The notes under the pieces were generated by a model. It was not told the DNA's origin, ran no database searches, and saw only the letters and a list, made by a program, of their open reading frames with translations. The position numbers were made by a program, and so were the translations under genes. DNA of 64,000 nucleotides from a virus. Positions 34,782 through 55,150 of this stretch are shown here, in pieces. Position 1 is the stretch's first letter; each line of letters starts with the position of its first letter. The stretch lies in IMG/VR virus record IMGVR_UViG_3300050821_008386, positions 67,761 through 131,760 of that record, one strand, 5' to 3'.

Positions 34782-36254
34782 TTAGCCTTGTGGCAGATCT
34801 TCGAAAGCCTTATCCAGACCGCGGCGACCGCTCATTTCTGATAACTTTTTCTTTTGCGGTTCTGGTTTGCCGCCGATCCCTGCACCGTTGCGTAACGGCG
34901 CGTCGGATACTTTGCGTTTGGTGGCGACTTCGTCACGGAGCTTTTTGATTTCAGATTCCAGCGTTTTGATATGGGTTTCTTTCTCAGTGACCGTCTTCTC
35001 TAATTCCGGCAACCGCGTCCGCATCTCGATGAAATCCAGGGCGTACCGGGCGGCCGTGCGCGGGCCTTTATTGAATTCGCCAATAACATTCGAAAACTGG
35101 CGTTCGAGTTCAGCAAATCTCTGATTGTGCTGATTGATCTCAGCGATCTTTGCCGGATCAGTCACGCCTTTAGTTTCCAGCGGCAACAGAGGTTTCAGAT
35201 GCGCTTTATCGCTAGAAATCGCTTTCTCGACCTCGTCTCTGATCTGGAACGCGTAATCGTTACTGAACTGGGCGTTGCGCTCGTTCTGCCATTTCTGGTA
35301 GGCGTTAGGATCTTTGCCATATGTCTCAACAGCTTTATCGTGTTTCTCCTGTACCCGGAGCAGATCCGCGACTTTCGAGAGAACTTTCTGGCGAACAGCG
35401 TTATCCGCTTTGGTCATCGCGCCGATGACATTGTCACTCCACCATTTGCTATCTACATCTTGTGGTTTGTAGTTCGTGGTCATCGTCTCCAGGAACTTGT
35501 CCACTTGCTCTTTGGGCGCGTCGAAATATTTGCTGGCTTCCTGCAGGACATCCACATACGCCTCCTGCATCGGCTTGAGGTAAGTGTCCTGATATTCTTT
35601 GGACTGTTTGTAATCAACCGCACGCGCCAGTCCGCGCAGAGTGTCTAGCTCTTTAGTGACTTCGGGCGAAAGCGCGTTAGTCTTCCACCCCTTAACTTTA
35701 GGCGCCAGATCGTCGAGGGTCGCAGCGATATCCTCGGGCGTATCCTGATAATTGTATCCAAGATCTCTCAGGAGCGGCCCGAGTTTATCGTATGCTTGCG
35801 CTTTAGCTTTGAACCCTTTGGCGATCGCTTTGACCTTCGCGAATTGCCCCTTCTGCTCTTCACTGGCCGAAGGCTGAAGCTCGAGCGAATCTATGTCGCC
35901 TGGAACGGCACCCACTGAGGCTGGGGCCGCTGGGCTAACCGGCGATTCTTTGGCCGTTTCCTTCTGTTCTGTTGGCGCAGTTGATTCCTCTGGAGCGGCA
36001 GACTCTTTGTCGGTTTCATTATTAACCGGTTCGGGTCTAGGCTCTTCTTTGGATTCCCTGACTGGTTCAGGACTGGGTTCAGTTGCAGCTTTTTCGTCCT
36101 GTTCCTTGAAAAAGGATGCAAACGTATCATCCAGTTCTCGCCTCTGCTTAGGCGTGGTGATCGTCTTGTCTAGCTGCGGATTAACGTAGTCGGGTTGTCC
36201 AGAGGGATGAACTAGAGGATCGTCCATTGAGGTGGAAGACCGTACCGCTGACAA
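34782..36254 (-). CDS. Probable capsid scaffolding protein (ATG start probably 36227)
   Basis: Acidic Pro-rich N-terminus followed by long coiled coil; same strand as and upstream of the capsid gene. Confidence 0.5.
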   Translation of the reverse strand: MSAVRSSTSMDDPLVHPSGQPDYVNPQLDKTITTPKQRRELDDTFASFFKEQDEKAATEPSPEPVRESKEEPRPEPVNNETDKESAAPEESTAPTEQKETAKESPVSPAAPASVGAVPGDIDSLELQPSASEEQKGQFAKVKAIAKGFKAKAQAYDKLGPLLRDLGYNYQDTPEDIAATLDDLAPKVKGWKTNALSPEVTKELDTLRGLARAVDYKQSKEYQDTYLKPMQEAYVDVLQEASKYFDAPKEQVDKFLETMTTNYKPQDVDSKWWSDNVIGAMTKADNAVRQKVLSKVADLLRVQEKHDKAVETYGKDPNAYQKWQNERNAQFSNDYAFQIRDEVEKAISSDKAHLKPLLPLETKGVTDPAKIAEINQHNQRFAELERQFSNVIGEFNKGPRTAARYALDFIEMRTRLPELEKTVTEKETHIKTLESEIKKLRDEVATKRKVSDAPLRNGAGIGGKPEPQKKKLSEMSGRRGLDKAFEDLPQG

Positions 36255-36811: not shown

Positions 36812-36846
36812 TATTTGGACTCCCTCATTCGATAGGTGCTCATATT

Positions 36847-37173
36847 TTATCTCCCGATGGCAAAGAAGTCAGGTAAGGTGACGTGAAGTTGGATGAGGTG
36901 ACCTTCCCGGCTATGCGCGAGGTACTGAAACACTCCTGCACCGTCATTGTCTTCGTGCTTCATCGAGTGAATGCCGAGTTCAGGCAATGTGGCAATCAGG
37001 CGTTTGGCTACTTCAGTAGCGAGGGCAGCGTTCTTGAACCCTTCGTTATCGTGGTCTTCGTCGTATAACGTTTCGTCGAGTTCATATTGCCAAGTGAAAT
37101 CAGCGATTGGATCAACCGGGCTGAAAGCGGCGTCCAGATCGTAGGCGGTGGCGTAAATCTTGTGGGTGCTCAT
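36847..37173 (-). CDS. Hypothetical acidic protein
   Basis: ATG ORF immediately downstream of a sigma70-like promoter. Confidence 0.55.
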   Translation of the reverse strand: MSTHKIYATAYDLDAAFSPVDPIADFTWQYELDETLYDEDHDNEGFKNAALATEVAKRLIATLPELGIHSMKHEDNDGAGVFQYLAHSREGHLIQLHVTLPDFFAIGR

Positions 37174-37179
37174 GTCTCC

Positions 37180-37208
37180 AACCTATACCCGCTCGTTATT
37201 TTAGTCAA
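37180..37208 (-). promoter_or_regulatory. sigma70-like promoter (possibly leaderless transcript)
   Basis: TTGACT-17-TAGGTT, with ATG 6 nt after the -10 box. Confidence 0.55.
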
Positions 37209-37261
37209 GCGACCAAATAAAGAAATCTCATTTTATTTTTAAATTCATCGGAAAAACTTTC

Positions 37262-37309
37262 TTGACTTGCATTGCAAAACGGAGGACAACCCCATGCAAG
37301 CGTATGCAT
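37262..37309 (+). promoter_or_regulatory. T4SS operon promoter with palindromic operator
   Basis: TTGACT-17-GACAAC, then ATGCA-AGCGTA-TGCAT (37294-37309) over the probable start codon. Confidence 0.55.
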
Positions 37310-37585
37310 TACATAATTCTCAATAATATCCTTGGCTTGCTTGCAGCGACGATGGATGTCGATACGGCTATTGGAAAGCTACTCGGCCTCATCGTCAAGT
37401 TCGGTTGGGTGGGCGGCGTGGGGCTGATGGTGCTCGGCGGCGTCTCAGCGTGGAGAGAGCATAATCTGACTGCGATTTCCGGTATTCTGATCGCTATTGG
37501 TGTCGCCTGTTGCGGTCCTTCGATTGTCGGCACGTTGATGGCGGCAATGAGCGGATTGAACGCGCAGCTTAACCCCACAGATTAA
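37304..37585 (+). CDS. VirB2/TrbC-like pilin
   Basis: ~93 aa, leader plus two hydrophobic helices, first gene before VirB3/VirB4. Confidence 0.68.
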   Translation: MHYIILNNILGLLAATMDVDTAIGKLLGLIVKFGWVGGVGLMVLGGVSAWREHNLTAISGILIAIGVACCGPSIVGTLMAAMSGLNAQLNPTD

Positions 37586-37588
37586 AAA

Positions 37589-37963
37589 ATGGCGGATACT
37601 CCCCCGCAGTTACAGATGATCCGCAACGACAACGCGGATGAGGTTCGGCCCGGTTGGGGCGTATTCGCAGGCCGATGGTCGATTGTTCCCTTTATCGCAG
37701 GGGCATGTTTCATCAGCCTGATGAACATCTCAGCGTTCATGGGACTGGATCTGGTCAGTTCACTCATCTTTGCGCTCTCCCCGGCAACCTTGATGACGGT
37801 GGCTGTCATTGTTTTCGTAAACCAGAAACCGCCGGGATACCCCTTGGAACTGGCTCAGATGTTCTGGTTCCGAGGGCACGAATGGCTCTACATCCATGGG
37901 TACACAGACGAGCCGCCTCAGATCTGGTATTCAGGTAAACCAGTGAGGCACCCGAGGTCATGA
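37589..37963 (+). CDS. VirB3-like inner-membrane protein
   Basis: Two TM segments then KPPGY; ATGA overlap with virB4. Confidence 0.62.
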   Translation: MADTPPQLQMIRNDNADEVRPGWGVFAGRWSIVPFIAGACFISLMNISAFMGLDLVSSLIFALSPATLMTVAVIVFVNQKPPGYPLELAQMFWFRGHEWLYIHGYTDEPPQIWYSGKPVRHPRS

Positions 37964-40620
37964 ACCGCATCCCGAACGGTTACCTGATCGATCGCTGCAA
38001 AGTCTGGTGCGAACCGGATGGTCAATTCGTGGTCAGTAAAGGGTCCAAAGCGGAGTTTCCCGATCTCTCGACCTCCGATGGGCAACATTGGTTGAACCTT
38101 GAATCGTCTTTACGCCAGTTGATGCGGTCAGTGAACGAGAGTGAACGCGTCCAGATCCTGTTCTATACCGGGCACGAGTTTAATCAACCTCTCGATCGTT
38201 ATGACCAGAAGACAGGGGCATGCAGGATAGAAATCTGCCGCGAAATACGCGAAGAGGTGTCGACCTATTTCCGTGATCGGATGCTGAACCAGAGTCTCGT
38301 CAACGCCAACGTCGAGATTCACGTCTCCAGCAAGTTCAAAGCTAAATCGTCGATGTTCGAGGATGCATTTGACGTTGTCCGCCGGAACGTCGAAGAACGA
38401 GGCGATTATTTCGATATGGTGGTCCGAGGGTTGGGCGGTTCAACTCAGCCTTTGGAGGACCGAGGTCATTACAACGCTCTGATGCGGCATTGGAGTCCCG
38501 GCACACCGTGTGGCAAGACGGACGATATTGATCTCAGTTCGTGTTTGGAAGATCTGGTCAGGCGTTCAGATGTGGCACCGAGAAACGGCAGCCGGGAAAC
38601 CGCGCACGGCTTTTATCTGGACGGCAAATATGTCGGCGTTTTCGTCGTTAAAAAGATGCCAAACGCTACATGGCAAAAGACCATGCAACCTTTTGTCACG
38701 ATGGCGATTCCAGGGCTGCGGATTTGCCTCAATATGCGCAAACTCTCTTCATTGGCTGAAGAGATGCATGATGACAAACGGGATTCCACGCTCTCGAAAA
38801 ACGCTGATAGCGCACGGGCTGTAGCCGGGAGACTCAAACATTTTGATCGGATCGTTCGGTTACAGAAAAACGAGGTGATGCCGTTCGCCGCTCAATTAAT
38901 CATCAGCATTTATGCCGATTCACCAGATCAATTGGATAGCCGGATGAACGCGACTCGTGTGGCGCTCGAACATTGCGGATGCCAAGCGTTTAATCCTGCG
39001 CTGACCACGAGCTCAGTCGCTCTCTTTAATTGCTCGACACCGGGATACGGACCATGGACAGGCTACACACCTTACTGGCTCAAGATCGACGACATTCATC
39101 TGGCGCATATGTGCCCGGTGGGGTCGACGCCAACGGGTAAACTCGATCAAGCCGATTGGTTGGTTTGTGGTAACCAGAATAATCTGGTTGGGTTCCCGTT
39201 CTTTATCGGCAGCCAACCATCTGATCTCATCGTCATGGGGAGTAAAGGCGGCGGTAAAAGCGCTACTACCCAGTACATGCTGCTTCAGGGCGCCCATCAA
39301 TTCGGGTTCTTAGGGTTTATCGATGAAGGCGCCTCATGGATCGAGACGGCAAGTCTTTTGGATCCGACATCGCGCCCGATTATTGTCGGCTCAAATTCAG
39401 GGCACACCTTTAATCCACTGGATACAAAAGGACTCGCTAAATCGCCGCAGCATACACGCAGTGCAATTGCTCTGATTCAACTGTTGGCTGGCAGAAGCGA
39501 CGATAAAGATCGGGATGCTGATCAGGCAGCGTTGATATCGCAAACCGTCAAAGCCTTGTACGAACGCGAGTTCGCTTATTGGAAGGTCAGGAATCCCAAT
39601 GATTATTATCAAGCGTGCCGGATAGCGAATTTGGCGTTACGAACTGTGGGCGAACATTTCGTGGATGCCGTTCAATGGCTCAAAGAAATGAAGCGGACGT
39701 CCCCGGACAAATATCGCGAAATCGACGGTGCATTGTCCGAGTCCGATGCCATGGCGTTAGCGAACGATCGCGACCTGAGTCATTTCATCAGTGACGCAGC
39801 GTTTTCCATGTGGACGCCCGATATGTTCCCGACGCTCTTTCATCTATGGGACGAACTGAACGCTCGTAAACGCGAGAAAGGCGCGTCACCGCTCTACGGT
39901 CCTTTAGCTTCACGATTAGAGCAATGGTTAGCGAACGGCGATTACGGGCCGATCGTCGATGGCGCGTCCAATATCGATTTAGGCACCAAGTTCATCACGC
40001 CTGAGAGTCCTCTGAAAGTGGTCCACTTCGAACTCGGCGAGATGAACAAATCAGAAGCGCGATTGAAAGAGGTCTTAGGATTTCTCCTCGCTAACGAGAT
40101 GCGCGCAGTGGTGCAGAATATGCCGAGGGCGATCCGTAAAGGGGTGATCATCGAGGAAATGACCAGTTTCTTGCGAGTCCCTAATGCGCAGGAAATCGTC
40201 ATCGATTACTCCGAGCGGATGCGGAAATACAATTGCTGGTTGGGATACGTCTTTCAGCAATATTCAGGACTGCTCAAAGCCGACAAACAGGTGGCTGAAG
40301 CGATCGTGGGTAATTCCTTGGCAATGATGCTGATGATGAATAAAAACCCCGAAGACCTGATTGCCCTCAACGATTACGTGCGAATCCCTGAACCGATCCG
40401 GCAAGCCGTTCAACAGTTTCCGCCACCTGAAAGTCTCCGTGGACGTAAAGACGCTTATGCCGGGTGCGTTTACGTGGATAAATCAGGGGCCCGCCCGGAG
40501 TTCACGATCTGCCGGGTGATGATGAGTGAGAAAGTCGAAGCAATCACCAATTCAAGCGGCGACAGGTTCGACGCTAAACGCAAAGCACTGATGCAACCAA
40601 GAGAGATGGCTACCGTATGA
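37960..40620 (+). CDS. virB4: VirB4-family T4SS ATPase
   Basis: 886 aa; Walker A GSKGGGKS, FIDEGASW, TFNPLD, YGPIVDG, Walker B IIEE, RMRKYN..QQ. Confidence 0.88.
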   Translation: MNRIPNGYLIDRCKVWCEPDGQFVVSKGSKAEFPDLSTSDGQHWLNLESSLRQLMRSVNESERVQILFYTGHEFNQPLDRYDQKTGACRIEICREIREEVSTYFRDRMLNQSLVNANVEIHVSSKFKAKSSMFEDAFDVVRRNVEERGDYFDMVVRGLGGSTQPLEDRGHYNALMRHWSPGTPCGKTDDIDLSSCLEDLVRRSDVAPRNGSRETAHGFYLDGKYVGVFVVKKMPNATWQKTMQPFVTMAIPGLRICLNMRKLSSLAEEMHDDKRDSTLSKNADSARAVAGRLKHFDRIVRLQKNEVMPFAAQLIISIYADSPDQLDSRMNATRVALEHCGCQAFNPALTTSSVALFNCSTPGYGPWTGYTPYWLKIDDIHLAHMCPVGSTPTGKLDQADWLVCGNQNNLVGFPFFIGSQPSDLIVMGSKGGGKSATTQYMLLQGAHQFGFLGFIDEGASWIETASLLDPTSRPIIVGSNSGHTFNPLDTKGLAKSPQHTRSAIALIQLLAGRSDDKDRDADQAALISQTVKALYEREFAYWKVRNPNDYYQACRIANLALRTVGEHFVDAVQWLKEMKRTSPDKYREIDGALSESDAMALANDRDLSHFISDAAFSMWTPDMFPTLFHLWDELNARKREKGASPLYGPLASRLEQWLANGDYGPIVDGASNIDLGTKFITPESPLKVVHFELGEMNKSEARLKEVLGFLLANEMRAVVQNMPRAIRKGVIIEEMTSFLRVPNAQEIVIDYSERMRKYNCWLGYVFQQYSGLLKADKQVAEAIVGNSLAMMLMMNKNPEDLIALNDYVRIPEPIRQAVQQFPPPESLRGRKDAYAGCVYVDKSGARPEFTICRVMMSEKVEAITNSSGDRFDAKRKALMQPREMATV

Positions 40621-40958
40621 TGATTCCCCGAACCGCGATAATCTTCGCGCTCTTTACCGCCGGATGCGCGGCGCCGCGCCAGTATCAAGGATACCAAGTC
40701 GGGCGCGACTATTACGCGCACCTCGATTCTAAACAGAAAGAGGTCTTCGATGCCGGTGCCGAGTATGCTACCAACGATATGGTCCAGCGGGAGTACGACG
40801 TTGAACGCCGAGCGATGCGTCATGATCTGCCAGGTGCGCGGCAAACGACTCAATTAAACAAGAAAATCGTGCCCGTCTCCGTCGACAGTTATACCGGTCC
40901 AGACGGTGTCGAGCATGATGCCGGTTACAAGTTTATCGAACTGAATTCGGTCCAGTAG
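40617..40958 (+). CDS. T4SS-associated lipoprotein
   Basis: Lipobox TAGC after a hydrophobic leader; ATGA overlap. Confidence 0.7.
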   Translation: MMIPRTAIIFALFTAGCAAPRQYQGYQVGRDYYAHLDSKQKEVFDAGAEYATNDMVQREYDVERRAMRHDLPGARQTTQLNKKIVPVSVDSYTGPDGVEHDAGYKFIELNSVQ

Positions 40959-40964
40959 AAAAGA

Positions 40965-42170
40965 GTGAAACGGTCGTGGCTGATAGTTGGCGTTCTTTTG
41001 CTCTTCGTGGGTAGATGCGAAGCGATCTATCCAGTGTACGATGCCGCCAATTACGTTCAGAACGTGCTGAACTATATCAAAGCGGGATTGGCTTACGTTA
41101 AGGACGCAGAGATCGAGGTGAACACGAATTTGACCGTCCTTCATCAGATCACGCAGATAGAAAATGAGATCCTGGAACTAGAGAGAATGGGCGATCCGCG
41201 GGTCCTCATCAACCTTCCCGGCATCGAACAAATCGCTAAACTTCAGCAGATCGTTATCCAAGCCCAGATCGATATCGCCAAGATCCGGGCATTCGTCAGC
41301 GCGGCCGGGATACAGGACAACTGCGACTCGATCATGCGGGCATACGGGTTCAGTTCGTGGCACGGATTCACCAGCGGATGGGGAGTAAAGTATTCGTGCA
41401 CCGTACCGCTCCTGCAATTCTCAACGTCCGATTATCAGGCGGATTCATACGCTCAATCGCGCGTTCAACAGTTGATGACGCAAAAACAGGATCTGCTCGC
41501 GCAACGGGATATTGCGATTGCAGGACAGAAAGCGGCAACCGACGACACCACGAAAATGAGTTATGCCGCCCAGATAACCGCCCTGAACGGCGCTATTGCG
41601 GATCTCGATCAATCGATCAATCAAACACTGGCGTTAGCGAACATCCAAGTGCGGATGAACGGATCAGCGCAGAACGTTTTTAACGGTATGTCAGGGCTAC
41701 AGACCCTAGCGGCATTCCAGCAACAGGAAGAATACGGAATAACGGCATTGGGCGGCACACCAACAGGAACCGCCCCCGGCTTACAGACAAACGGTACAGT
41801 AGTCGGCAACTCCAGCGAGTTCGGCTACATCGATAACCCGGCAATCGGCGGCACGGGCGATCCTGGAACATCCGGTTCATGGGATGTCGGAGCCGGGGGT
41901 GCCAATATCGGGTCACAAAACTCAACCGGGATAAGTTTACCGCTGGCAACCGAAGTCGCGATGTTCGGTAGCGAATCCAATGCGCTCGGTCAGAATGTCA
42001 TGGTGACCAATAATGCGACGGGCGCTTCGACAGTAACACAGATTGTTGATGTTGGGCCCGGCCAGTCATCGGTCGCTAAAGGCAACATCGTAGATCTTAC
42101 GTACGGGACGGCAGCGGCCCTCGGGACTGAGGGAAAATCAACCAACGTAACAGTGAGCAAAGTTCAATGA
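40965..42170 (+). CDS. VirB5/TrbJ-like protein with C-terminal RlpA-like double-psi beta-barrel
   Basis: Signal peptide, PVYDAAN..QITQIEN coiled coil; VMVTN..TG..IVDVGP..IVDLT..AAALG. Confidence 0.65.
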   Translation: MKRSWLIVGVLLLFVGRCEAIYPVYDAANYVQNVLNYIKAGLAYVKDAEIEVNTNLTVLHQITQIENEILELERMGDPRVLINLPGIEQIAKLQQIVIQAQIDIAKIRAFVSAAGIQDNCDSIMRAYGFSSWHGFTSGWGVKYSCTVPLLQFSTSDYQADSYAQSRVQQLMTQKQDLLAQRDIAIAGQKAATDDTTKMSYAAQITALNGAIADLDQSINQTLALANIQVRMNGSAQNVFNGMSGLQTLAAFQQQEEYGITALGGTPTGTAPGLQTNGTVVGNSSEFGYIDNPAIGGTGDPGTSGSWDVGAGGANIGSQNSTGISLPLATEVAMFGSESNALGQNVMVTNNATGASTVTQIVDVGPGQSSVAKGNIVDLTYGTAAALGTEGKSTNVTVSKVQ

Positions 42171-42553
42171 TCAAGGAAGTCATAGCAGCAACCGCGCTTG
42201 CGTCGAGCGCATACGCCAGCGGCAGTTTGCCAGTGGCGCACGAGTATAATCCGGCAAAACATTCTGGTGAATACGTAGCAACGGTCACTCGAGGCGGCCA
42301 ATCAGCGCAGGTCGAGGTCAAGGTATTCGGCCAGGAAGACGTGATCGCCGCACGCCTCGCCGGCGTGGCGCTGACAAGAGGATATCCGAACCATGCGCCA
42401 GCTGCCGAGATGGAAGCAGTGGTCAGGCAGAAAGCGATCGAACGCTGCGGTAACGATGAGGATATGGTCAGGATGTTCGTCAATGATGCCCGTGTTGCTT
42501 ATATCACCCGGATGCGGGCGCTGAACGCCAAGACGGGATTGAGTATCCGATGA
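42167..42553 (+). CDS. Exported hypothetical protein
   Basis: Signal-peptide-like N-terminus; ATGA overlap. Confidence 0.55.
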   Translation: MIKEVIAATALASSAYASGSLPVAHEYNPAKHSGEYVATVTRGGQSAQVEVKVFGQEDVIAARLAGVALTRGYPNHAPAAEMEAVVRQKAIERCGNDEDMVRMFVNDARVAYITRMRALNAKTGLSIR

Positions 42554-42984
42554 AGATCGCGGCAAAACCGACTCGCTATAACGGCGTCGAATTCAAGTCA
42601 CGTCTTGAGGCGCGTTTTGCCGAGATGCTCACGCACAAGCGGATGTTATGGGAGTACGAACCTCTTTCTACTTGGTTCGGGACGTATCAGCCAGATTTCT
42701 ACCTCCGCCATATGGGACACCAAGGCTTGTACGTCGAGATCAAACCTCGGGAATATATCGCAGAATTACAGATGTTCTGGAACGCCATATGGTCCGCTCC
42801 GGCGCCGTGGGTCTGCATAGATAAAGCGCATGGATTCCGAGATCAATGGGTGATAATTCAAGGTAACAGCAGGTTCAAAAGCGGGCTGCAGTTCTCTTCT
42901 GTCACCGTTCCTGTGAGTTTCAAGTCCTCCGGCGATCTCCATTACTTGGAAATAGAGACGGAAGGACTCCTCTATTCGCCATAA
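42550..42984 (+). CDS. Phage-type PD-(D/E)XK nuclease
   Basis: YNGVEFKSRLEARFA, WEYEP, YQPDFYL, YVEIKP. Confidence 0.82.
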   Translation: MKIAAKPTRYNGVEFKSRLEARFAEMLTHKRMLWEYEPLSTWFGTYQPDFYLRHMGHQGLYVEIKPREYIAELQMFWNAIWSAPAPWVCIDKAHGFRDQWVIIQGNSRFKSGLQFSSVTVPVSFKSSGDLHYLEIETEGLLYSP

Positions 42985-42989
42985 AAACC

Positions 42990-43013
42990 TTGACTGTGCT
43001 TGCGATAGCATGG
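42990..43013 (+). promoter_or_regulatory. Internal promoter with operator
   Basis: TTGACT immediately followed by GTGCT-TGCGAT-AGCAT; 17 bp identical to 60493-60509. Confidence 0.6.
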
Positions 43014-43032
43014 TAGACGCAATGCAAATCCG

Positions 43033-43992
43033 ATGACTAACCAGTTCTTACAGGCCATCTTTCCCGGGTTCAGCGCGGGCCTCCAATCCCTCCACAACGT
43101 CCTGATAGGGCCTGCGGCGTTGATCTGTATCGCTGGCATGTACCTACGGCTTCTGAAAGCCGGAGCGTCCACAAACGAAGTCTACGACGTTCTGGTGCGT
43201 GTTGGATTAGTCGTTGTGGTCATCAGCCAGGTGTACACGATTGGCGATATCCTCGTCCAACTGGCGACTGATCTGGTGACAGCTACCGGATGGAAAATCG
43301 ATCAGAACATGTGGCAGGATTATACGGTCGCCGTGATGACCAAATACAATCCGGTCACCCAACCCGGCAACAATAACCCGCTCCAGTTTTTTTCGAACGC
43401 GTTTCAGGGGGCGTGGATTGGCGCATGGGCCACGTTCGTCTATGGATTCTCCATTTTCGCTTCTGGACTGATGATGCTCTCGCGACTTCTGCAATCGATC
43501 CTGATTAATGTTGAGATGGGACTATCTCCCTTGTTCCTCGCGGCGATCGTGGTGCCGTCGCTTGTCACCCTCGCAACGCGTTGGGGTACAACGTTTATAG
43601 CTCTCTGCATGTGGACCGTGGGGTTTGCCATTGCGGACCTCGGCACCAAAGGATTTATGGATTTAGCGGTTAATCCCGGCAATAACGCAGTGCTTGGCGC
43701 GGCCAACGCTGTCGGTGCGTCCACGATGCTTTGGGTTTTCATGGGATTGTGGATCTGTTTCGTCTCGGTGATGGGACCGATACTGATCTGGAAAGCCATC
43801 GTGAGTAACGGCAGTCACGGTCTGCACATGATCCCCATGGCGATGATGGGCGCGGTATTCGCCGGAACCGCGATGGCAAAAGGCGCGATCGGCAACGTTG
43901 CGGCAGGTGGCAACGCCGCAGTGACACTCAGTTCGCCTCCCGCTTCTCGTAACGGCGTTGTCCGTCCCGGCTTTGCTAATTCACGACCATGA
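43033..43992 (+). CDS. virB6: VirB6/TrbL-like polytopic membrane protein
   Basis: ~7 TM segments, LSPLFLA..LATRW, Gly/Ala-rich tail. Confidence 0.75.
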   Translation: MTNQFLQAIFPGFSAGLQSLHNVLIGPAALICIAGMYLRLLKAGASTNEVYDVLVRVGLVVVVISQVYTIGDILVQLATDLVTATGWKIDQNMWQDYTVAVMTKYNPVTQPGNNNPLQFFSNAFQGAWIGAWATFVYGFSIFASGLMMLSRLLQSILINVEMGLSPLFLAAIVVPSLVTLATRWGTTFIALCMWTVGFAIADLGTKGFMDLAVNPGNNAVLGAANAVGASTMLWVFMGLWICFVSVMGPILIWKAIVSNGSHGLHMIPMAMMGAVFAGTAMAKGAIGNVAAGGNAAVTLSSPPASRNGVVRPGFANSRP

Positions 43993-44168
43993 GAAAACCA
44001 ATCCAGCTAACGTCCACATCACAGATATCGAAGGGAACGGGAGAAATCGTCACCACGTTATTCGCGTTGTCGGATGACGGTAAAATGTTCGTCTTAAAAA
44101 AGGGAGAGAAAGAATGGGAATGGATGGAAGTCCCCCCGCTCCCGCAACCGGCAGGACCAGAGTTGTGA
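43989..44168 (+). CDS. Small phage-type protein (59 aa, not in ORF track)
   Basis: Hand translation MRKPIQL..LFALSDDGKMF..WMEVPPLPQ; ATGA overlap. Confidence 0.6.
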   Translation: MRKPIQLTSTSQISKGTGEIVTTLFALSDDGKMFVLKKGEKEWEWMEVPPLPQPAGPEL

Positions 44169-44253
44169 AAGCAATGAAAACGATCCTCTTAATTTACTTT
44201 GCTCTCTCCGTCGTTGAAGCATTCCTCAAACTCTACGTGGCCTTGGCTGCAAA

Positions 44254-44589
44254 ATGACAAAGCCGCACGAATTACACCTGCCGCCGCATGACGACATGAT
44301 CACTCTGTGGTCCGGGGACCATTACACCGTAGCCCTGCACCAAGACGGGTTTATCCTCGCCGTCTATCTTGCGTGGTCACTGATTGGTCTGGCAGTCTAT
44401 CTATTCGGTCACGGACTAGCGCCGCGTCCACGCACTCTCTTAGGTTTATTCTGCGGGCCGGGTGCGTGGATTGCCGCCGGGTACAAATGTTATCACTTGG
44501 AAAAGCATCGGCGCGACGCGCTTCCACCACCTCTGCCGAAGCTCAAACCGCCTCCACTAAGACATTGGGAATTCAAGCCAAGGAACTAA
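44254..44589 (+). CDS. Membrane protein
   Basis: Two hydrophobic segments, LFCGPGAW, Pro-rich tail. Confidence 0.55.
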   Translation: MTKPHELHLPPHDDMITLWSGDHYTVALHQDGFILAVYLAWSLIGLAVYLFGHGLAPRPRTLLGLFCGPGAWIAAGYKCYHLEKHRRDALPPPLPKLKPPPLRHWEFKPRN

Positions 44590-45228
44590 ATGAGCGCAAT
44601 CGGAAATAAGATCAGGTCAGCATCTAAAAGCGCCAAACTATGGGCGACGCTCTTCGTTGTTTACGTGTTTGCCAGAGAAGGCATCGGCGCATGGCAACTC
44701 TATGATGCCACTCATTCCGCCTTGCGCGGATTTGTGGTTAACGATGAGACTTATTACGTCGGTCACGCTGACCCGGTTCTCCAGCAACGCGAAACGCATA
44801 TCCGTCTGGCGAAAACCGCAGCGATCGCAATGTACGGACGCAACCCGTACGGACTGGATCAGATGGAAACCTTGACCCGGATATTCAGTACGCCATGCCA
44901 GAAATTGATTCTGCAACACGTTGGGGATGACGCGGGAACATTCGCTTCATCCAGTATGAGTCAGGATTTCAAGCCGGATCGACCGATCATCGAAGTTGCC
45001 CGTGATAATACCTCTTGCACCATGCTGGTCGAAGGCGACGTGGTTCAGGTACGAGTTGAGCACGGAGTATCGATCCCTGATTCAAAACCGATGCGCCTCG
45101 TTTTTCGCTTGGAACGCAATGCAAGATTCGGTGAAGACGGGAAATTCCCGATGGTGGTCACCAAATTCACTGCGGACTACATCAAAGAGCATTCCCCTGA
45201 AACCCACACTGTAGCGGACACCAAATAA
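44590..45228 (+). CDS. VirB8/TrbF-like protein
   Basis: Single N-terminal TM then ~170 aa NTF2-sized domain; lies between VirB6- and VirB9-like genes. Confidence 0.6.
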   Translation: MSAIGNKIRSASKSAKLWATLFVVYVFAREGIGAWQLYDATHSALRGFVVNDETYYVGHADPVLQQRETHIRLAKTAAIAMYGRNPYGLDQMETLTRIFSTPCQKLILQHVGDDAGTFASSSMSQDFKPDRPIIEVARDNTSCTMLVEGDVVQVRVEHGVSIPDSKPMRLVFRLERNARFGEDGKFPMVVTKFTADYIKEHSPETHTVADTK

Positions 45229-46206
45229 ATGAATCCCCGAACAATCAGGCGAGCGTGGGTCATCACCCTCCTCGTTCTCGCGACGATCTTGTTGATAACG
45301 GATTTGTCGTTCTCGCAAGGTATCTCCACTAAACCCATTAACCCGAAACTGCCGACGCGAATCACCTTAAGCAGGGCCACAAGCACCACTATTTTGTTTC
45401 CTTCACAGTTTTCAGGGGTCTACGCGCTAGGGCTCGTTTTCAAAGATAAAGACACCAAGGGCAACTTGGTCGGGACAGTCCAAGGATGGTACGAAACGCA
45501 GCGACCCACGCCGATTCTGATCCTGCATTCATTAGTCGATAATCTCGACACGTTCATGACCGTCTATATGAACGATCAACTCTACACATTCGAACTGGTT
45601 ACAGGTCCGTATCCTGATGTGTCACTGACACTGACCAGCGGTAACGCGCCAGCGTCTTCAACGAAACTTCCCGAGATCGATGAGGACACTGTGGTCAAGA
45701 TGCGTCCACGATACGAACCGCAACTGTTAGCTGACATCATGGATCTGGCGCGAGAAGCGCCGTTAATCAAAGCGAGTTATCCAGAAGCGTACGCGGGATA
45801 CTCTGAGCGCAACGATATCCCGTACATCTCGGATGACGGTTTCGTACGTACCACAGTCACCCTGATTCAGAAGTTCAGCGATCGGGACGCTATCGTGATC
45901 AGCGGGAAAGCGGAGAACCTGACAAATACTCCTGTTCCATTTGATACCGCCCATGTCAGCATGGCAGTTGGCACTGTCCTGAAACCGATCACGGTTCTTA
46001 CTCCGACACGACCGATTCCGGCCAATAAAGCGGTTAATTTTACCGCGATCACAATAGGGGATGTCGGAGGCGGTCGCGCTGATATTGCGCTGGCAAACGA
46101 GTTCAGGTTGATCGTCGATTCAGGACATCATTCGGCACCCAGTGAGCCAACAGTCCCGGTCTTGCCTCCCGCGCCGCTCCTGCCACCGAAAGGATCCGTA
46201 AAATGA
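45229..46206 (+). CDS. VirB9/TraK-like outer-membrane core protein
   Basis: Signal peptide, ITLSRATSTTILFPS, beta-rich; precedes virB10. Confidence 0.6.
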   Translation: MNPRTIRRAWVITLLVLATILLITDLSFSQGISTKPINPKLPTRITLSRATSTTILFPSQFSGVYALGLVFKDKDTKGNLVGTVQGWYETQRPTPILILHSLVDNLDTFMTVYMNDQLYTFELVTGPYPDVSLTLTSGNAPASSTKLPEIDEDTVVKMRPRYEPQLLADIMDLAREAPLIKASYPEAYAGYSERNDIPYISDDGFVRTTVTLIQKFSDRDAIVISGKAENLTNTPVPFDTAHVSMAVGTVLKPITVLTPTRPIPANKAVNFTAITIGDVGGGRADIALANEFRLIVDSGHHSAPSEPTVPVLPPAPLLPPKGSVK

Positions 46207-47405
46207 GAGCGTTTTTAAAGAACGTCTTCTCGCAAAAAGGCGCGGTCGGACTGGCTATTTGTCTGGTGGGCATCTGGCTGATTCATAACGCGCTAGTAAC
46301 CCGAGAACATAACGCGCAAATGGCGGACGCTAAACGGCCAAAACAACCGTTAGCGCAGACTAATCCGAGTACGGTAGTTAATCCCGCAGTCGCGCAACCT
46401 GCGGTGATTGCGGACGGGAAAGAGCGGACCGGCCTTAACTATCATGCCAACGTCGAACAACCGATCGTGATCGAACCGGAAGCGACGCCGCAACCGAAAG
46501 TCGAAGATCTGCCGCCGATGGTCTTATGCGATTTCCCGGTGCCGACACCGACACCGTCACCGACTCCGAGCGCTCCCAAAGCGCAACGTCTCAAGCGCTG
46601 GTTGCCGCGTGGAGTCTATTTCCGAGTCGAGACACAAGGTGCCTTGATGTCTTCGCACATGGATACTCCCGTGCAGGTCAAGGTGACCGAAGACGTCTAT
46701 CAATGGGACGGCGGCCGTTCTGAATTGATTATTCCCGCCGGGACAAGGTGCAGCGCGTGGGCTACGCAAGGTTACACCCGTGATCGCCTTGAGGTAAAAG
46801 GCGACTGGATAATGGTGTTCCCGACAAACGGGTTCGAGTTGGAGTTCACCGGGATACTTTGCGAACAGGAATTTGACCCGCAACTGAACCAGTTCGGCAA
46901 GTTCGATAAGACAGCAGGGTTATTAGGCAAACTGATCGAGAGCGACGGTTATGTGCGGTTGAAAGCGGCGTTGGGCCTTGTTCTCCAGACGGCAGCGGAT
47001 AGCGCCAGTTCGTTCGCGTCCAGTGCGCTTCAGACCTCGATGCGCGGAGGGACAAGCGTCAGTTATAACGTTCCGTCGACTACACCATTCACCAACGAAT
47101 GGATCGAGCAACTGGTTAACGGCCATCATACGGCGATCAATGATACCCTCTACGTGCTGGTCCCGTCAGGGCATCAGGGATGGATCTTCACCACTTCAGT
47201 CATCGATCCTGACGTAGCCTCTATCGGGGCACGGATACAGGAAGAAGAAAAAGCCCGTAAACAGCGGGAAGAACAGCAGTACGAACGTACACAAAGCCCG
47301 GTCGATGCCGTTCTCCTTAAGCGCCTTCAGCAACCCGCCGAACAAACCCAAATCGATCCATTATCCAATGAACAGAAACCTGTTTCTGCCGCTCATTTTA
47401 ATTAG
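46203..47405 (+). CDS. virB10: VirB10/TrbI-like protein
   Basis: TM anchor, Pro-rich linker, LPRG..PVQVKVTEDVY..LIIPAGT..RDR..AGLLG..VLVPSG. Confidence 0.78.
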   Translation: MRAFLKNVFSQKGAVGLAICLVGIWLIHNALVTREHNAQMADAKRPKQPLAQTNPSTVVNPAVAQPAVIADGKERTGLNYHANVEQPIVIEPEATPQPKVEDLPPMVLCDFPVPTPTPSPTPSAPKAQRLKRWLPRGVYFRVETQGALMSSHMDTPVQVKVTEDVYQWDGGRSELIIPAGTRCSAWATQGYTRDRLEVKGDWIMVFPTNGFELEFTGILCEQEFDPQLNQFGKFDKTAGLLGKLIESDGYVRLKAALGLVLQTAADSASSFASSALQTSMRGGTSVSYNVPSTTPFTNEWIEQLVNGHHTAINDTLYVLVPSGHQGWIFTTSVIDPDVASIGARIQEEEKARKQREEQQYERTQSPVDAVLLKRLQQPAEQTQIDPLSNEQKPVSAAHFN

Positions 47406-47964
47406 CACCCTTGCCGGATGCGCCCAGCAACAAACCAAGACCCGCGAAATAACCGTGGTCAAACTGGATAAACTGCCAGCGTCCGCCAAAAAGAAAGGGC
47501 CAACCCAAAAGTTCACTGCGCAAGTCAACCTGACACCGGGCAAACTCAAGCCGCGGATGGTCGAGATCTATGATATCGGTCCAACCGTCGACAGCGACGG
47601 GAACCTTGTCGGTGAACACAAATATTACAAGGTGGTGGAGACTGAACGCTGGACTTATATCCCCCATACGCCGGCCACATTCCCGGCGTTCAAACAGGGT
47701 AAACCGAAAGTACAAGAGGCGGATGCGGTCGATCAAGCCAAGCGGGTGATGGAAGAGCTCAAAGCGGCGACCGCACAAGCCCGAAGTCAGATGCCTGCGG
47801 TTCAACCCGTAGCTAATCCCGGTCCAGGCGGAAACGCGACAGCAGAAGCACCGTTACCACAGACTGAAGGATTATCCCCGGTCCAGAGCGAGGTGGACAC
47901 CGCTCTTTCTCCTGAGAGGCAACAGGCGCTTAAAACGTTCGATCAACAGGCGCAGCAACCGTGA
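47368..47964 (+). CDS. T4SS-associated lipoprotein; start moved to 47368
   Basis: MNRNLFLPLILISTLAGC lipobox. Confidence 0.7.
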   Translation: MNRNLFLPLILISTLAGCAQQQTKTREITVVKLDKLPASAKKKGPTQKFTAQVNLTPGKLKPRMVEIYDIGPTVDSDGNLVGEHKYYKVVETERWTYIPHTPATFPAFKQGKPKVQEADAVDQAKRVMEELKAATAQARSQMPAVQPVANPGPGGNATAEAPLPQTEGLSPVQSEVDTALSPERQQALKTFDQQAQQP

Positions 47965-48839
47965 CCCTGTACGAAACCCTCACGTCCCAACTGATAGGGC
48001 AGAACGAGGTACTGTTCGAGGTTGCGGACCTGTTGGAACGGGCACAGGAAGGAATGTGCTACCAGGGGCAACCGCGTGCGTCAATCTTGATGCTAGGCCC
48101 GACAGGCGTAGGGAAGACTGAATGTGCCTTGATCGCCTGCAAAGCGCTGTACGGGACTCCTGAGCAGTGGATGGCCCGGTTCGATATGTCCGAGTACATG
48201 ACTGCTGACTCTGTGCTTAACCTTCTGGGAACGACACAGTATCGAGGCACGTTCGAGCATAAGACGAAGGCTATGAAAACAGGGGGCGTTATCCTCTTCG
48301 ATGAAATCGAGAAAGCGCACTCCGAAATTCTCAATACGCTCCTGCAGATATTGTCTGCTGGCAGGATAACCACAGGACAGGGAGAAGTCTTGGATCTCAC
48401 GGATTTCATCATTCTCGCGACAACAAACATCGGGTCACGAATCCTGATGGAAAGCCGGGATGACCGATGGGAAGTGGTGAGAGACAGGACCATCCGCGCA
48501 GCGCTTCAAGAGATCAGCCCTGAGATCCTGAATCGATTCGATCTTCTGGCGGCATTCAACAAGCTCAAACCCGAATCAATGGCAGAGATCACGGATCTGC
48601 ATGTGGAAACCGTGATCGCCATCCAAAGAGAGTTGAAAAATCAGGTCACGGTCGATCGATCAGCGCGCGACCATATCCAGAAGGCCGGGTTCAGCGACAT
48701 ATTCGGAGCGCGTCCCGTCCGCCGGGAGGCGATGAAGATCATTTCGAGGGCAATCAGGGAGAAACGGTCGGCGCCGGGTGAATCGGTGTCGGGCACCATC
48801 ACCTATAACGCAAAAACCAATCGCATCAGCATTGCATGA
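47961..48839 (+). CDS. Stand-alone ClpA/ClpB D2-like AAA+ ATPase
   Basis: LIGQ, GPTGVGKTE, RFDMSEY, LFDEIEKAH, TTNIG, PEILNRFD, FGARP. Confidence 0.9.
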   Translation: MTLYETLTSQLIGQNEVLFEVADLLERAQEGMCYQGQPRASILMLGPTGVGKTECALIACKALYGTPEQWMARFDMSEYMTADSVLNLLGTTQYRGTFEHKTKAMKTGGVILFDEIEKAHSEILNTLLQILSAGRITTGQGEVLDLTDFIILATTNIGSRILMESRDDRWEVVRDRTIRAALQEISPEILNRFDLLAAFNKLKPESMAEITDLHVETVIAIQRELKNQVTVDRSARDHIQKAGFSDIFGARPVRREAMKIISRAIREKRSAPGESVSGTITYNAKTNRISIA

Positions 48840-48997
48840 CCGAGAAGGAGCATCTGGACGCGCAAATTACCGTCCGAGTGACCGACGAGACTTACAGCAA
48901 ACTTGAGGCTCAAGCCAAAAAAGAAGGCAAGACCAAAAGCGACCTGATCAGAGAGGCAGCAGAGGAGAAATTAGCTAAACATGATAAAGCCAAGTGA
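48836..48997 (+). CDS. Ribbon-helix-helix (CopG/Arc-like) regulator (53 aa, not in ORF track)
   Basis: Hand translation MTEKEHLDAQITVRVTDETYSKLEAQAKKEGKTKSDLIREAAEEKL; ATGA overlap. Confidence 0.82.
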   Translation: MTEKEHLDAQITVRVTDETYSKLEAQAKKEGKTKSDLIREAAEEKLAKHDKAK

Positions 48998-49325
48998 CAA
49001 GACAGAAACCCTGAGAAGTCGGGTAGCTTCGACTTCTCCCAGTGATCTCACGGACCAGAAATATCTGCTCCATCATACACAGTTAAAGCGATGGTTCTCG
49101 ATTTGTGCCGGGAGCGCAGTAGGCGAAATGGACCGTGGGATGTACGACGACTGGAGCGGGCCTTATGATGAGATTGCCGTGGTTACCCACAAGAGAGAAT
49201 ACAACTTGGCACCGCGAGTGCGGCAACGGCCACCGTCAGATTATCGCACTGCAGAAGATCTGCAGGCGCAGATTCAGCGGGTCCGAGAAACTCATTGCCG
49301 TCACAACGGCATAGGCATTCACTAA
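48981..49325 (+). CDS. Hypothetical protein
   Basis: ORF filling the gap before a hairpin; start uncertain. Confidence 0.35.
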   Translation: MIKPSDKTETLRSRVASTSPSDLTDQKYLLHHTQLKRWFSICAGSAVGEMDRGMYDDWSGPYDEIAVVTHKREYNLAPRVRQRPPSDYRTAEDLQAQIQRVRETHCRHNGIGIH

Positions 49326-49335: not shown

Positions 49336-49363
49336 GCCGCCCCAATCCGAAAGTTGGGGCGGT
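49336..49363. terminator. GC-rich hairpin between convergent genes
   Basis: CCGCCCCAA-TCCGAAAG-TTGGGGCGG; no clear U-tract. Confidence 0.5.
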
Positions 49364-49377: not shown

Positions 49378-50127
49378 TTAGCCCGTGACAGCGGCGAGAT
49401 CTGATTGCAGCGACGCCATGTCTATTCCTGCCGGTGATTTCCCGGCTTTTAACCAGTCCGGGCTGAGAATGGCGTACGCTTCGTCGCAGTAGGCGTCCCA
49501 GAATTCCCACGACATCCGCATCAGTTGTCCCCACGTCACCACGGTCAGTCCGCCTTTGTCGTATTCAACGACGATGACGCAATGACCGCCCCACGAGCCC
49601 GGTTGACAGTCCGGGTTCCATGTCGGTCCAGCCACTACCCATGACGGTTGGTTCTGAGCCGAGATCGGTAAGGCAACACCGATTAAAACCGTCCCGAAGA
49701 CCAGTAGCGTCTCTTTGACGTGATCTTTGTTCCCGGTTTCCAGAGCGACATAAGCGTCAATCTTGTGGCCGCCGATACCCGTTTGCCGCCAATAGTTGAG
49801 GACATCAACCAGATTGCATCCGTTATCGTTGACGCCAGTGGCCGGGTTATATCCTGACACTGCGGAATAAGCGGCGATGATCTGGCTATCGGGTATTACG
49901 ACGGGGGTCCCGGTATTCTGGGTCCATCCAAGGATCGCGTGGCCGGGTCCGGCTATGGCGCAATCACCGATCGTATCGTTCTTCATCATTCCCCATTGTG
50001 TCCGGCTATCAGTCCAATCTTTGTTGGCCGGGATAGGCGGTAACAGGCTGGGCGAACGGTAGTCCGCGAGGCGTAAAGTGCGCGGGTTGTAAACAAATGG
50101 TTTTTTACCGAGTTTATAGAGAGGCAT
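49378..50127 (-). CDS. Papain-like (C1-type) cysteine peptidase-like protein
   Basis: NDTIGDCAIAG (Cys), WGGHCV (His), VVTWG. Confidence 0.7.
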   Translation of the reverse strand: MPLYKLGKKPFVYNPRTLRLADYRSPSLLPPIPANKDWTDSRTQWGMMKNDTIGDCAIAGPGHAILGWTQNTGTPVVIPDSQIIAAYSAVSGYNPATGVNDNGCNLVDVLNYWRQTGIGGHKIDAYVALETGNKDHVKETLLVFGTVLIGVALPISAQNQPSWVVAGPTWNPDCQPGSWGGHCVIVVEYDKGGLTVVTWGQLMRMSWEFWDAYCDEAYAILSPDWLKAGKSPAGIDMASLQSDLAAVTG

Positions 50128-54835: not shown

Positions 54836-55150
54836 TATTTCCAGAGTTGACCAAAGAAACAAAATTCACGCTCACATGCTGGTTTACCGCGCTGGTTTAT
54901 CTCGGACTGTGCGGAGTTGCAGTGCTGATTCCATTTTCAAAGGATAAAGGATGACAAACAAAGAACAGATCGAAGCGCTCCGGCGCGAAGTCGCAGAACT
55001 GAAAGGGATGGTTCAGACGCTCCTGATGCGACAACCGTGCCTGCCAAACGTCTATCCGTGCCTTCCCAGTCATCCACCATACAGTCCGTTCCCTCTGTAT
55101 CCAAACACGAGTGATCCGTGGTGCGGCACTACTTCGCGAACGGCCTGCTA

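Follow-up and report, generated by a model that had tools for sequence, protein, structure and literature searches.

According to a 2025 review, no phage-plasmid or integrated prophage was known to be conjugative (PMC12282955), and in surveys of phage-plasmids conjugation genes are absent or sporadic (PMC7969092; 10.1101/2025.11.07.687105). According to the accessible text of Pfeifer & Rocha 2024, P1-like phage-plasmids have lost packaging and gained mobilisation genes (PMC10879196). A limited literature search found no interleaved conjugative tailed phages in print. The element described here, the soil-derived IMG/VR virus record IMGVR_UViG_3300050821_008386 (131,760 bp; hereafter G000), carries an operon for a type IV secretion system (T4SS) among the head and packaging genes of a tailed phage. 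The window, that is, the whole stretch of 64,000 nucleotides that was analysed, corresponds to bases 67761-131760 of this record. Positions marked 'genome' follow the numbering of the whole record, and all others that of the window.

G000 is, in our judgement, probably a mosaic phage-plasmid hybrid that also transfers itself by conjugation. The mosaic would unite the virion and packaging module of an uncultured podophage-like lineage with a plasmid-like backbone that includes a complete conjugation system. The argument is built on the identity of the core parts, their physical linkage, the circularity of the element and the recurrence of the combination in a second phage lineage; conjugation as the function and the continued production of virions are what we infer.

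A divergent secretion operon among phage genes

The operon occupies 37304-48997, with all genes on the plus strand and every listed frame open, and its genes are joined by eight 4-bp overlaps and two gapless abutments (Table 1). It is the mating-pair-formation part of a very divergent, diderm-type T4SS. Direct family searches were nearly blind to it: Pfam, PHROGs and NCBIfam recognised little beyond the VirB4 protein, the AAA+ ATPase and the ribbon-helix-helix (RHH) protein, and PHROGs gave no match for the core operon genes. A first-pass annotation, made from the letters of the window, had nonetheless claimed a T4SS operon with open frames on the same molecule as a capsid and a terminase, and this is borne out by the sequence of VirB4, the profile of VirB10 and the fold of VirB9. 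Its list of VirB genes holds to differing degrees: it stands for VirB4, VirB9 and VirB10 and more weakly for VirB5, VirB6 and VirB8, and the VirB2 and VirB3 assignments come from position and topology only.

VirB4 was matched by the NCBIfam models TraC-F-type (5e-18), CD1110 VirB4-like (2e-10) and VirB4_CagE (2e-9), all far below the curated cut-offs (64 bits for TraC-F-type, the best of them, against a cut-off of 567 bits), and in Pfam by a sub-threshold TraG P-loop match only. A 12-sequence VirB4 profile matches the VirB4 C-terminal domain of PDB entry 4ag5 at 1.7e-10, and a Walker A motif lies at residue 427. By homology and motif, the product is identified as a VirB4. The VirB10-like protein alone has no Pfam match and reaches the NCBIfam VirB10 model only at 0.087. 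Its profile gathered 605 relatives in a search of 1.84 billion representatives; Pfam TrbI is matched by 99 of the 104 aligned profile relatives (best 1.6e-21), and against PDB sequences the profile found Xanthomonas VirB10 (6gyb, 2.4e-6), TraF (0.005) and TraB (0.006). The protein is identified as VirB10/TrbI by such transitive homology.

For VirB9, it is a predicted fold only that provides the identity. The AlphaFold2 model, computed from 43 sequences, has a predicted local distance difference test (pLDDT) score of 83.5, and the Foldseek comparison that the first-pass annotation had proposed came out clearly: all top 10 PDB matches are T4SS VirB9 homologues (F TraK, pED208, DotH, TrwF, Xanthomonas VirB9 and CagX among them). 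With VIA-align, the top 8 have Z scores of 9.6-13.1, and the first unrelated row has 6.7. A fold search of BFVD with the same model found no convincing viral VirB9-like protein, the best rows having a query TM-score of at most 0.23 or a single beta-sandwich domain in common. Against PDB sequences, profiles built from three sequences each of the VirB8-, VirB9- and VirB10-like proteins gave no meaningful match.

The VirB6, VirB8 and VirB5 assignments are leads, with weaker support than those of VirB4, VirB9 and VirB10. In the ESM-Atlas, the neighbours of the VirB6-like protein by features and by structure are TrbL/VirB6 clusters (TM-score 0.63-0.66 by query), and those of the VirB8-like protein are VirB8, TraE and DotI clusters (features 0.93, structure TM-score 0.66-0.76); for VirB8 there is no Pfam match. 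When 123 orthologues of the VirB3-, VirB5-, VirB6- and VirB8-like genes were scanned singly, 11 matched TrbL, 6 matched PF07996, which we take to be the VirB5 family, and 29 matched DUF4141, in a pooled tally that does not distinguish the members behind each match. Other parts of the earlier annotation fare well: Pfam confirms the AAA+ ATPase and the RHH gene, and both lipoproteins have lipoboxes (in 40617-40958 and 47368-47964).

Relaxase and candidate coupling protein

The DNA-processing functions of a conjugative element are encoded outside the window, some 24 kb and more from the operon on the same circle. The product of genome 9354-12125 matches TrwC at 5e-53, followed by an AAA_30 helicase domain, and aligns to the TrwC structure 1omh at 1.5e-22 with the His triad in place. 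A coupling-protein-like ATPase of 458 amino acids (aa) at genome 16856-18232 matches TrwB_AAD_bind (3e-12) and TraG-D_C (4e-9) and has a Walker A motif. The remaining genes of genome 0-40 kb include DnaB, RecT and methylases. Judging by its predicted proteins, and counting the NikA-like RHH protein, G000 appears to encode all the protein classes that self-transfer requires. Of the roles that the first-pass annotation had proposed for the operon, cell-to-cell spread of the genome is the one favoured, because relaxase, coupling protein and NikA-like RHH protein together point to conjugative transfer of DNA; protein delivery and killing are less favoured.

The phage module and its relatives

By its capsid, its terminase and 14 of the 16 genes of its lineage, G000 is a real tailed-phage genome. 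The model of its major capsid protein matched 279 PDB chains at E<=1e-3 in Foldseek, led by Pan3, NF5, Shigella phage B2, N4 and DEV, that is, by podophage and HK97 capsids. The protein has 764 metagenomic homologues, and capsid relatives are encoded by 421 IMG/VR contigs. Neither the capsid protein, which has no Pfam domain, nor the scaffold-like protein is matched in Pfam or PHROGs. The large terminase, TerL, also lacks a Pfam match and is 44-45% identical to its homologues in G012, G014 and G019, three complete or near-complete relatives of 74-78 kb from an uncultured podophage-like lineage. Core tail proteins were not recognised in G000.

These three relatives have 16 genes in common, of which 14 are present in G000 as open frames; they include terL, a 216-aa gene, the portal candidate, the scaffold-like gene, glycosyltransferase-like genes, the capsid gene, two genes of ~620 aa, YcaO, TfuA and a giant protein. 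Gene order is colinear with the relatives except for an inverted terL-216-portal block, and the T4SS operon sits exactly at the inversion breakpoint, between the scaffold-like gene and terL. The first-pass annotation had placed the operon between a scaffold-like gene and the terminase; terL does begin at 50149, and the left-hand gene is scaffold-like by position only. G012, G014 and G019 have no T4SS, relaxase or coupling protein, and their sequences give 5 short matches among the ORFs of genome 0-40 kb. Relative to them, the insertions in G000 amount to ~55 kb and comprise the T4SS block, a glycan island, fibre genes and a longer giant protein.

The YcaO-TfuA pair (genome 55421-57963) is 33-39% identical in G012, G014 and G019. 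Since it is among the 16 genes common to the 74-78 kb relatives, it appears to be an old part of the phage lineage and not a recent import.

Table 1. Features of the window, in window coordinates, with the evidence for each (ORF, open reading frame)
Feature	Coordinates	Strand	Evidence or remark
HK97-fold major capsid protein	20452..21693	-	413 aa; AlphaFold2 pLDDT 73.7; Foldseek
Scaffold-like gene, left border of operon	34782..36254	-	By position; 23% identical to gene after portal in G012 and G014
16-bp palindrome ATGCW-N6-WGCAT, candidate operator	37294..37309	.	Overlaps start codon of first operon gene
VirB2-like pilin candidate	37304..37585	+	93 aa from internal ATG; two hydrophobic helices
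VirB3-like small membrane protein	37589..37963	+	Two hydrophobic helices; 4-bp overlap with VirB4
VirB4/TraC-family ATPase	37960..40620	+	886 aa; family, profile and motif evidence
Small lipoprotein, VirB7-like by position only	40617..40958	+	Lipobox residues 14-17; homologue in G002
VirB5-like secreted protein	40965..42170	+	401 aa; signal-like N-terminus; orthologues in 17/113 loci
Two small inserted genes	42167..42984	+	128 aa of unknown function, phrog_21138 1.5e-11; 144 aa, endonuclease-like (42550-42984)
VirB6/TrbL-like polytopic membrane protein	43033..43992	+	4 hydrophobic segments; orthologues in 62/113 loci
Two small ORFs	43989..44589	+	59 aa; 111 aa with one transmembrane helix
VirB8-like protein	44590..45228	+	ESM-Atlas neighbours; orthologues in 60/113 loci
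VirB9 homologue, outer-membrane core complex	45229..46206	+	Fold
VirB10/TrbI homologue	46203..47405	+	Transitive profile homology; N-terminal transmembrane helix
Second lipoprotein	47368..47964	+	198 aa from internal Met; lipobox LAGC; no family match
Single-domain Clp/ClpB-D2-type AAA+ ATPase	47961..48839	+	292 aa; AAA_2 7.6e-33, ClpB_D2-small 9e-8
RHH protein, NikA-like, candidate relaxosome accessory factor	48836..48997	+	53 aa; RHH_1 3.7e-9, NikA-like 8.8e-9
114-aa ORF, function unknown	48981..49325	+	9/9 listed strain differences synonymous third-position
9-bp perfect hairpin between convergent genes	49337..49362	.	Before terL
Phage protein, function unknown	49378..50127	-	249 aa; phrog_19005 1.6e-32
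Large terminase, terL	50149..52002	+	phrog_2 1.1e-12; tblastn to annotated phage terminases 3e-5
Tail fibre or collar protein	52760-53608		phrog_9116 3.6e-28
Portal candidate	55118..57610	+	Position and size only; 41-43% identical homologues after terL in relatives

Circularity and physical linkage

IMG/VR classes G000 as linear, with a CheckV completeness of 91%. Its first 11 bases are the same as its last 11 (window 63990-64000 joined to genome 1-92), an exact terminal overlap with a chance probability of ~2e-7, and joining the ends through it rebuilds a 58-aa cassette ORF. This rebuilt frame has the C-terminal motif and the ATGA stop/start overlap that are found in the small cassette ORFs at both contig ends. 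On this evidence we treat G000 as circular and closed (~131.7 kb) or, alternatively, as circularly permuted and assembled into a circle. An array of small cassette ORFs runs across the circle junction.

The earlier remark that no integrase was noticed extends to the whole contig, in which neither PF00589 (Phage_integrase) nor PF00239 (Resolvase) found a match; these searches work on control genomes, and PF00589 was detected in G001, a related element described below. An ICE (integrative and conjugative element) lying beside a prophage in a chromosome was considered as well, and is ruled out by the closed circle, the lack of flanking host genes and the lack of an integrase.

The conjugation genes are located at three separate places among the phage genes, and read-derived contigs support their continuity with them. 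Contigs of two other sequencing runs bridge the left junction of the operon (36846-37327 and 37066-37363), one contig (50095-50272) bridges the junction of the 249-aa gene and terL, and no joints are reported in the Logan contigs that cover the region. The best Logan run covers 30 of 30 bins evenly, at 1.3-5.9x. A ~95%-identical strain in a 2022 run of another study covers 29 of the 30 bins, phage and T4SS genes alike; among the listed differences to it (40 of 310 in total), 37 are synonymous, as are 23 of the 26 listed for the VirB4 gene, and the few genes that could be sampled bear the mark of purifying selection. Base composition is uniform, with a G+C content at third codon positions of 0.605 in the operon and 0.605 in the structural block, and overall G+C content and tetranucleotide usage are also indistinguishable.

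A second phage lineage with the same conjugation system

The combination recurs in a different setting. G003 (65,084 bp, with a 123-bp direct terminal repeat and CheckV completeness of 100%) carries the same T4SS operon and, in this order on one strand, the T4SS, a coupling protein (TraG-D_C 8.8e-10), a TrwC relaxase-helicase (7e-31) and a virion module. In the latter are encoded a Mu-type portal (Portal_Mu 4.7e-65), a head protease, the major proteins of head (phrog_1005, 2e-21) and tail, a tape measure and tail assembly proteins. G053 (66,519 bp), which comes from a different metagenome, repeats this gene content and order and matches 42 of the 68 ORFs of G003 at 36-79% protein identity, with no blastn match at all between the two genomes. 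Their T4SS, relaxase and virion genes have diverged to a similar degree, so that in G003 and G053 the combination has long been passed on as a whole. The terL of G000 finds no match in G001, G002 or G003, and the head module of G003 is different, of Mu type. As far as protein comparison can tell, G003 and G053 form a second, structurally unrelated phage lineage with the same T4SS, coupling protein and relaxase, and at 65-66 kb they are better candidates than G000 for true dual transmission.

Two further elements share the system. G001, a circle of 39 kb with T4SS, relaxase, coupling protein, ParA and a tyrosine recombinase (PF00589), resembles a plasmid or an ICE that has been excised. The phage genes searched for in it were the capsid and terL genes of G000 and the Mu-type portal gene of G003, and none had a match. 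In G002, an IMG/VR fragment of 36.6 kb, homologues of G000 early genes, fibre-like genes and the start of the T4SS operon are joined.

A secretion family associated with Verrucomicrobiota

The VirB4 profile found 102 relatives in one-genome-per-species contigs, and 67 of the 80 that were kept carry names of Verrucomicrobiota lineages, many of them on contigs of hundreds of kb to 4.6 Mb; it also matched 33 soil metagenome contigs. The set used for counts of operon neighbourhoods holds 113 related loci. The VirB6-, VirB8-, VirB9- and VirB10-like genes and the AAA+ ATPase gene are each found in 56-63 of them, and VirB3-like homologues lie immediately upstream of VirB4 in 28. The AAA+ ATPase, present in 63 of the 113, is thus a constant component of the family. 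No homologues of the capsid, terL or portal genes of G000 or G003 were found within 10 kb in the 113 loci. A Logan contig of 102,662 bp encodes an 80%-identical VirB4 together with a 65%-identical VirB9-like protein.

A related VirB4 was present in only 2 of the 72,556 plasmids of PLSDB (CP007054.1 and NZ_CP109797.1, both Opitutaceae), which are typed mobilizable and non-mobilizable, with the genes under the match annotated as hypothetical. A tblastn search with VirB4 found no match in 50,697 GenBank phage records, and single-protein scans of IMG/VR with VirB4 and the relaxase found no relative. Taken together, these results place the operon in a T4SS family that is associated with Verrucomicrobiota and goes unrecognised by curated tools. 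Because its relatives are mostly in metagenome-assembled genomes (MAGs) labelled Verrucomicrobiota, it was probably acquired from ICEs or plasmids of this phylum, and a Verrucomicrobiota bacterium is also the probable host of G000.

Candidate regulatory sites and accessory genes

A 16-bp palindrome overlies the start of the operon. Four copies lie in the window (at 37294, 60351, 60492 and 62830), against 0.12 expected, and eight in the contig, the others at genome 19869, 31048, 36663 and 45018. By the ORF calls, five of the sites are intergenic, two fall within ORFs and one coincides with the start codon of the operon's first gene; the identical 16-mer is present at three of them. Three sites fall within genome 0-40 kb, the replication and recombination region. 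This recurrence at the operon start and in genome 0-40 kb suggests that the operon is controlled by the element's own regulator, with the palindrome as candidate operator. At the other end, the hairpin at 49337..49362 is the probable end of the operon transcript. A simple scan for promoters and terminators found sites no more frequent than in shuffles, and no RNA data set was listed as containing this stretch.

Beyond the hairpin, the start codons of the 249-aa gene and terL are divergent and lie 21 bp apart (50128-50148), so that at least one of the two promoters must be inside the neighbouring gene. Within the 249-aa phrog_19005 gene, contigs of all four runs match only at 49471-49503 (~33 bp) and diverge on both sides; this appears to be a short sequence common to other elements in these soils.

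The VirB5-like protein has an extra C-terminal domain of ~105 aa, its orthologues in relatives being only 263-289 aa long, and residues 284-387 (41814-42125) match a domain in the giant virion protein of G012, a phage that has no T4SS, at 36% identity (E 1e-13). In G001 and G003, the VirB6-like protein has an insert that is homologous to a domain of the giant protein of G000 (genome 40915-51582). A cell-wall-opening domain common to ejection proteins and T4SSs is a possible explanation. The 128-aa and 144-aa genes, the latter matched by Holliday-junction-resolvase and endonuclease PHROGs (2.5e-6 and 3.3e-5), have no homologue in the related operons examined; translationally coupled within the operon, they were apparently inserted later. 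Weak homologues of the 111-aa ORF occur in G003 and locus L078, and the VirB2-like ORF shows 30% identity over 93 aa with the ORF in the corresponding position of G001.

A proposed mode of spread and its rivals

In the mechanism that we propose, the most likely task of the operon is to carry one strand of the element's own DNA into adjacent cells. The relaxase, aided by the RHH protein, would nick the origin of transfer (oriT), and the coupling ATPase would pass the nucleoprotein to a channel powered by VirB4. This channel would be made of VirB6, VirB8 and VirB10, with an outer-membrane complex of VirB9, VirB10 and lipoprotein, and contact with the recipient cell would be made by a VirB2-like pilus tipped by the VirB5-like protein. 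The AAA+ ATPase may replace VirB11 or unfold substrates. G000 would then spread in two ways, by conjugation and, provided that its genome fits the capsid, in virions. In a bolder form, which we put forward tentatively as a possibility, stable lineages of true tailed phages with at least two unrelated virion modules keep a complete conjugation system beside their packaging genes, wired into their own regulation, and choose between lytic particles and contact-dependent, receptor-independent spread through the T4SS.

A number of points weigh against this reading. G000 is 1.7-2.3 times larger than all 17 relatives that are at least 90% complete (58-78 kb), while its capsid protein is 65-73% identical to theirs, which makes packaging of the whole genome doubtful: the 132 kb may not fit a capsid of this lineage. 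VirB4 is absent from all 49 capsid relatives examined, which are part of 80 loci kept (the other 31 are all records of at most 31.5 kb) and include the 17 records at least 90% complete and five with terminal repeats. The idea that a phage has domesticated a T4SS therefore holds for this sublineage and not generally, and mosaic phage-plasmid is the better description; the absence of the operon from all close relatives, which the first-pass annotation had named as a finding that would speak against it, is what is seen among the capsid relatives. The portal candidate has no match in Pfam, PHROGs or the PDB (the last with a two-sequence profile). On the conjugation side, the VirB2 and VirB3 candidates, assigned by position, topology and conservation in relatives, have no family match (Pfam, PHROGs and NCBIfam for the VirB2-like ORF), and Pfam and NCBIfam found no VirB11 and no recognisable VirB1 among the proteins scanned. 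VirB11 and VirB1 are not universal among T4SSs. The coupling-protein-like ATPase has no predicted transmembrane helix, and its only PDB sequence match is a weak one (DotL, 1e-3). A search for inverted repeats found none of oriT type upstream of the relaxase gene and, near the RHH gene, only short hairpins. No replication initiator was identified in G000, and the ParA-like match covers the P-loop only. Over this region the Logan contigs, of which only a part is listed, are short, with a depth of 3-5x.

The question of size leads to a rival that is unlikely and yet deserves to be taken seriously, namely that G000 is a phage-derived conjugative plasmid, too large to package, which spreads by conjugation only and whose virion genes are a remnant or have another use, for example partial headful packaging as in gene transfer agents. 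The 131.7 kb of G000 against 58-78 kb in 17 near-complete relatives with 65-73% identical capsids, the ~55 kb of insertions and the P1-like phage-plasmids that lose packaging and gain mobilisation genes, as given in the accessible text of PMC10879196, all fit this view. However, the 14 virion and packaging genes of the lineage core that are retained all have open frames, the CheckV estimate of 91% for 131.76 kb would imply a reference of similar or larger size, and G003 and G053 keep both modules at a normal siphovirus genome size. A recent cointegrate of a conjugative plasmid and a phage, or a passenger prophage, with modules that are not functionally integrated, is improbable. Such unions have precedents in the accessible parts of PMC12934698 and 10.1101/2025.03.14.643293, genome 0-40 kb has almost nothing in common with the 74-78 kb relatives, and other occurrences of the T4SS family are in MAG contigs and the 39-kb integrase-bearing circle G001. 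Yet the phage genes of G000 lie in two blocks, the operon is at an inversion breakpoint and the relaxase and coupling protein are ~24 kb or more away, a layout that a single insertion therefore cannot explain. The absence of an integrase, the uniform composition, the shared operator-like palindrome, the joining of fibre genes, early genes and T4SS in fragment G002, and the long co-inheritance in G003 and G053 also speak against it.

That the phage has turned the T4SS to another use, such as delivering effectors or toxins, altering receptors or shutting out rivals by means of a pilus, or aiding the entry or exit of phage DNA, seems quite improbable. The position of the operon directly upstream of terL and on the same strand in both G000 and G003 would suit such a role, as would the domain that the VirB5-like protein has in common with a giant virion protein, the family-specific AAA+ ATPase of unfoldase type where VirB11 might be expected, and the coupling protein without a membrane anchor. 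Against it, in G001 as well as in the two phage lineages the T4SS is co-inherited with an intact MOBF-type relaxase-helicase that has its catalytic His triad, a coupling-protein-like ATPase and a NikA-like RHH protein, and the same operon with its AAA+ ATPase is common in Verrucomicrobiota loci in which no phage genes were seen within 10 kb. A chimera assembled from a phage and a plasmid of one soil sample, finally, is scarcely credible. The low depth of 3-5x in Logan contigs and the loose ends of several runs around 49471-49503 could be taken as its signs, but at least four false joins would be required. Moreover, the ends close by an 11-bp overlap that restores an ORF, contigs of other runs bridge the left junction and that of the 249-aa gene and terL, depth is even in 30 of 30 bins with the 95% variant covering 29 of 30, composition is uniform, and G002, G003 and G053 are independent cases.

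If a self-transferring phage-plasmid hybrid is indeed what G000 represents, an element with both routes would blur the sorting of mobile elements by capsid and by mating pore: the phage would gain entry to cells without its receptor, and the plasmid an exit from a dying or isolated host. Conjugative elements of the Verrucomicrobiota, an abundant soil phylum, are possibly undercounted, since the T4SS parts reach no curated cut-off and PLSDB types the carriers as mobilizable or non-mobilizable; its typing may miss this T4SS family. In IMG/VR, hybrids of this kind are listed simply as 'virus'.

Comparison with known systems

On its phage side, G000 resembles the podophage-like lineage with genomes of 58-78 kb in capsid, terL, portal candidate, YcaO-TfuA pair and giant protein, and has 14 of its 16 core genes; it differs in its early region, in the inversion of terL-portal and in ~55 kb of added DNA. 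On its conjugation side, the closest described systems are T4SSs of VirB/Trw type with a MOBF relaxase, such as those of R388, pKM101 and F. VirB9, VirB10/TrbI, VirB4, a TrwC-like relaxase with its His triad and a VirB-like gene order are common to both, and the VirB9 fold of G000 superposes on R388 TrwF with a Z score of 12.0 and a root-mean-square deviation of 2.0 over 96 residues. Unlike those systems, the window proteins stay below every curated cut-off, there is an extra Clp-type AAA+ ATPase, no VirB11 or VirB1 was found among the scanned proteins, and the coupling protein has no transmembrane helix.

As a whole, G000 is comparable to the phage-plasmids P1, N15 and SSU5, being circular and extrachromosomal, with no integrase found and with tailed-phage virion genes beside plasmid-type genes (a ParA-like P-loop and DnaB). 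It is unrelated to them in sequence, its VirB4 having no tblastn match in the GenBank phage records, and adds mating-pair-formation genes, a coupling protein and a relaxase. Both gene sets are also present on one replicon in E. coli p1002-1, named a 'conjugative phage-plasmid' in the SegMantX preprint (10.1101/2025.03.14.643293). In the accessible part of that preprint, p1002-1 is a fusion of two recognisable parent replicons, whereas the modules of G000 are interleaved and its T4SS is of an unrecognised type, and in G003 and G053 the combination is conserved without detectable DNA identity. The Hodor conjugative megaplasmids likewise combine, on a single extrachromosomal molecule, a T4SS with full sets of tailed-phage genes. 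In the available text of PMC12934698, they exceed 300 kb and their prophages are contiguous, integrase-bearing and excisable passengers, in contrast to G000, in which the T4SS lies inside the virion and packaging region and no integrase is found. Phage and conjugation functions travel together, too, in the phage-ICE tandems of Streptococcus (PMC13651849) and in Phi1207.3, a 'conjugative prophage' (PMC4260502); by their description in the accessible parts of these papers, they differ in being tandem accretions or conjugally transferred prophages. Physical linkage itself thus has precedents, and hybrids of this sort are also mentioned in passing elsewhere in the literature. What appears to be new is the interleaved combination of phage and conjugation genes, its long conservation in one lineage, the unrecognised type of the T4SS and a probable host in an uncultured soil phylum. 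The presence of the same conjugation system on two unrelated phage backbones, one of them conserved without DNA identity, points to selection and not accident.

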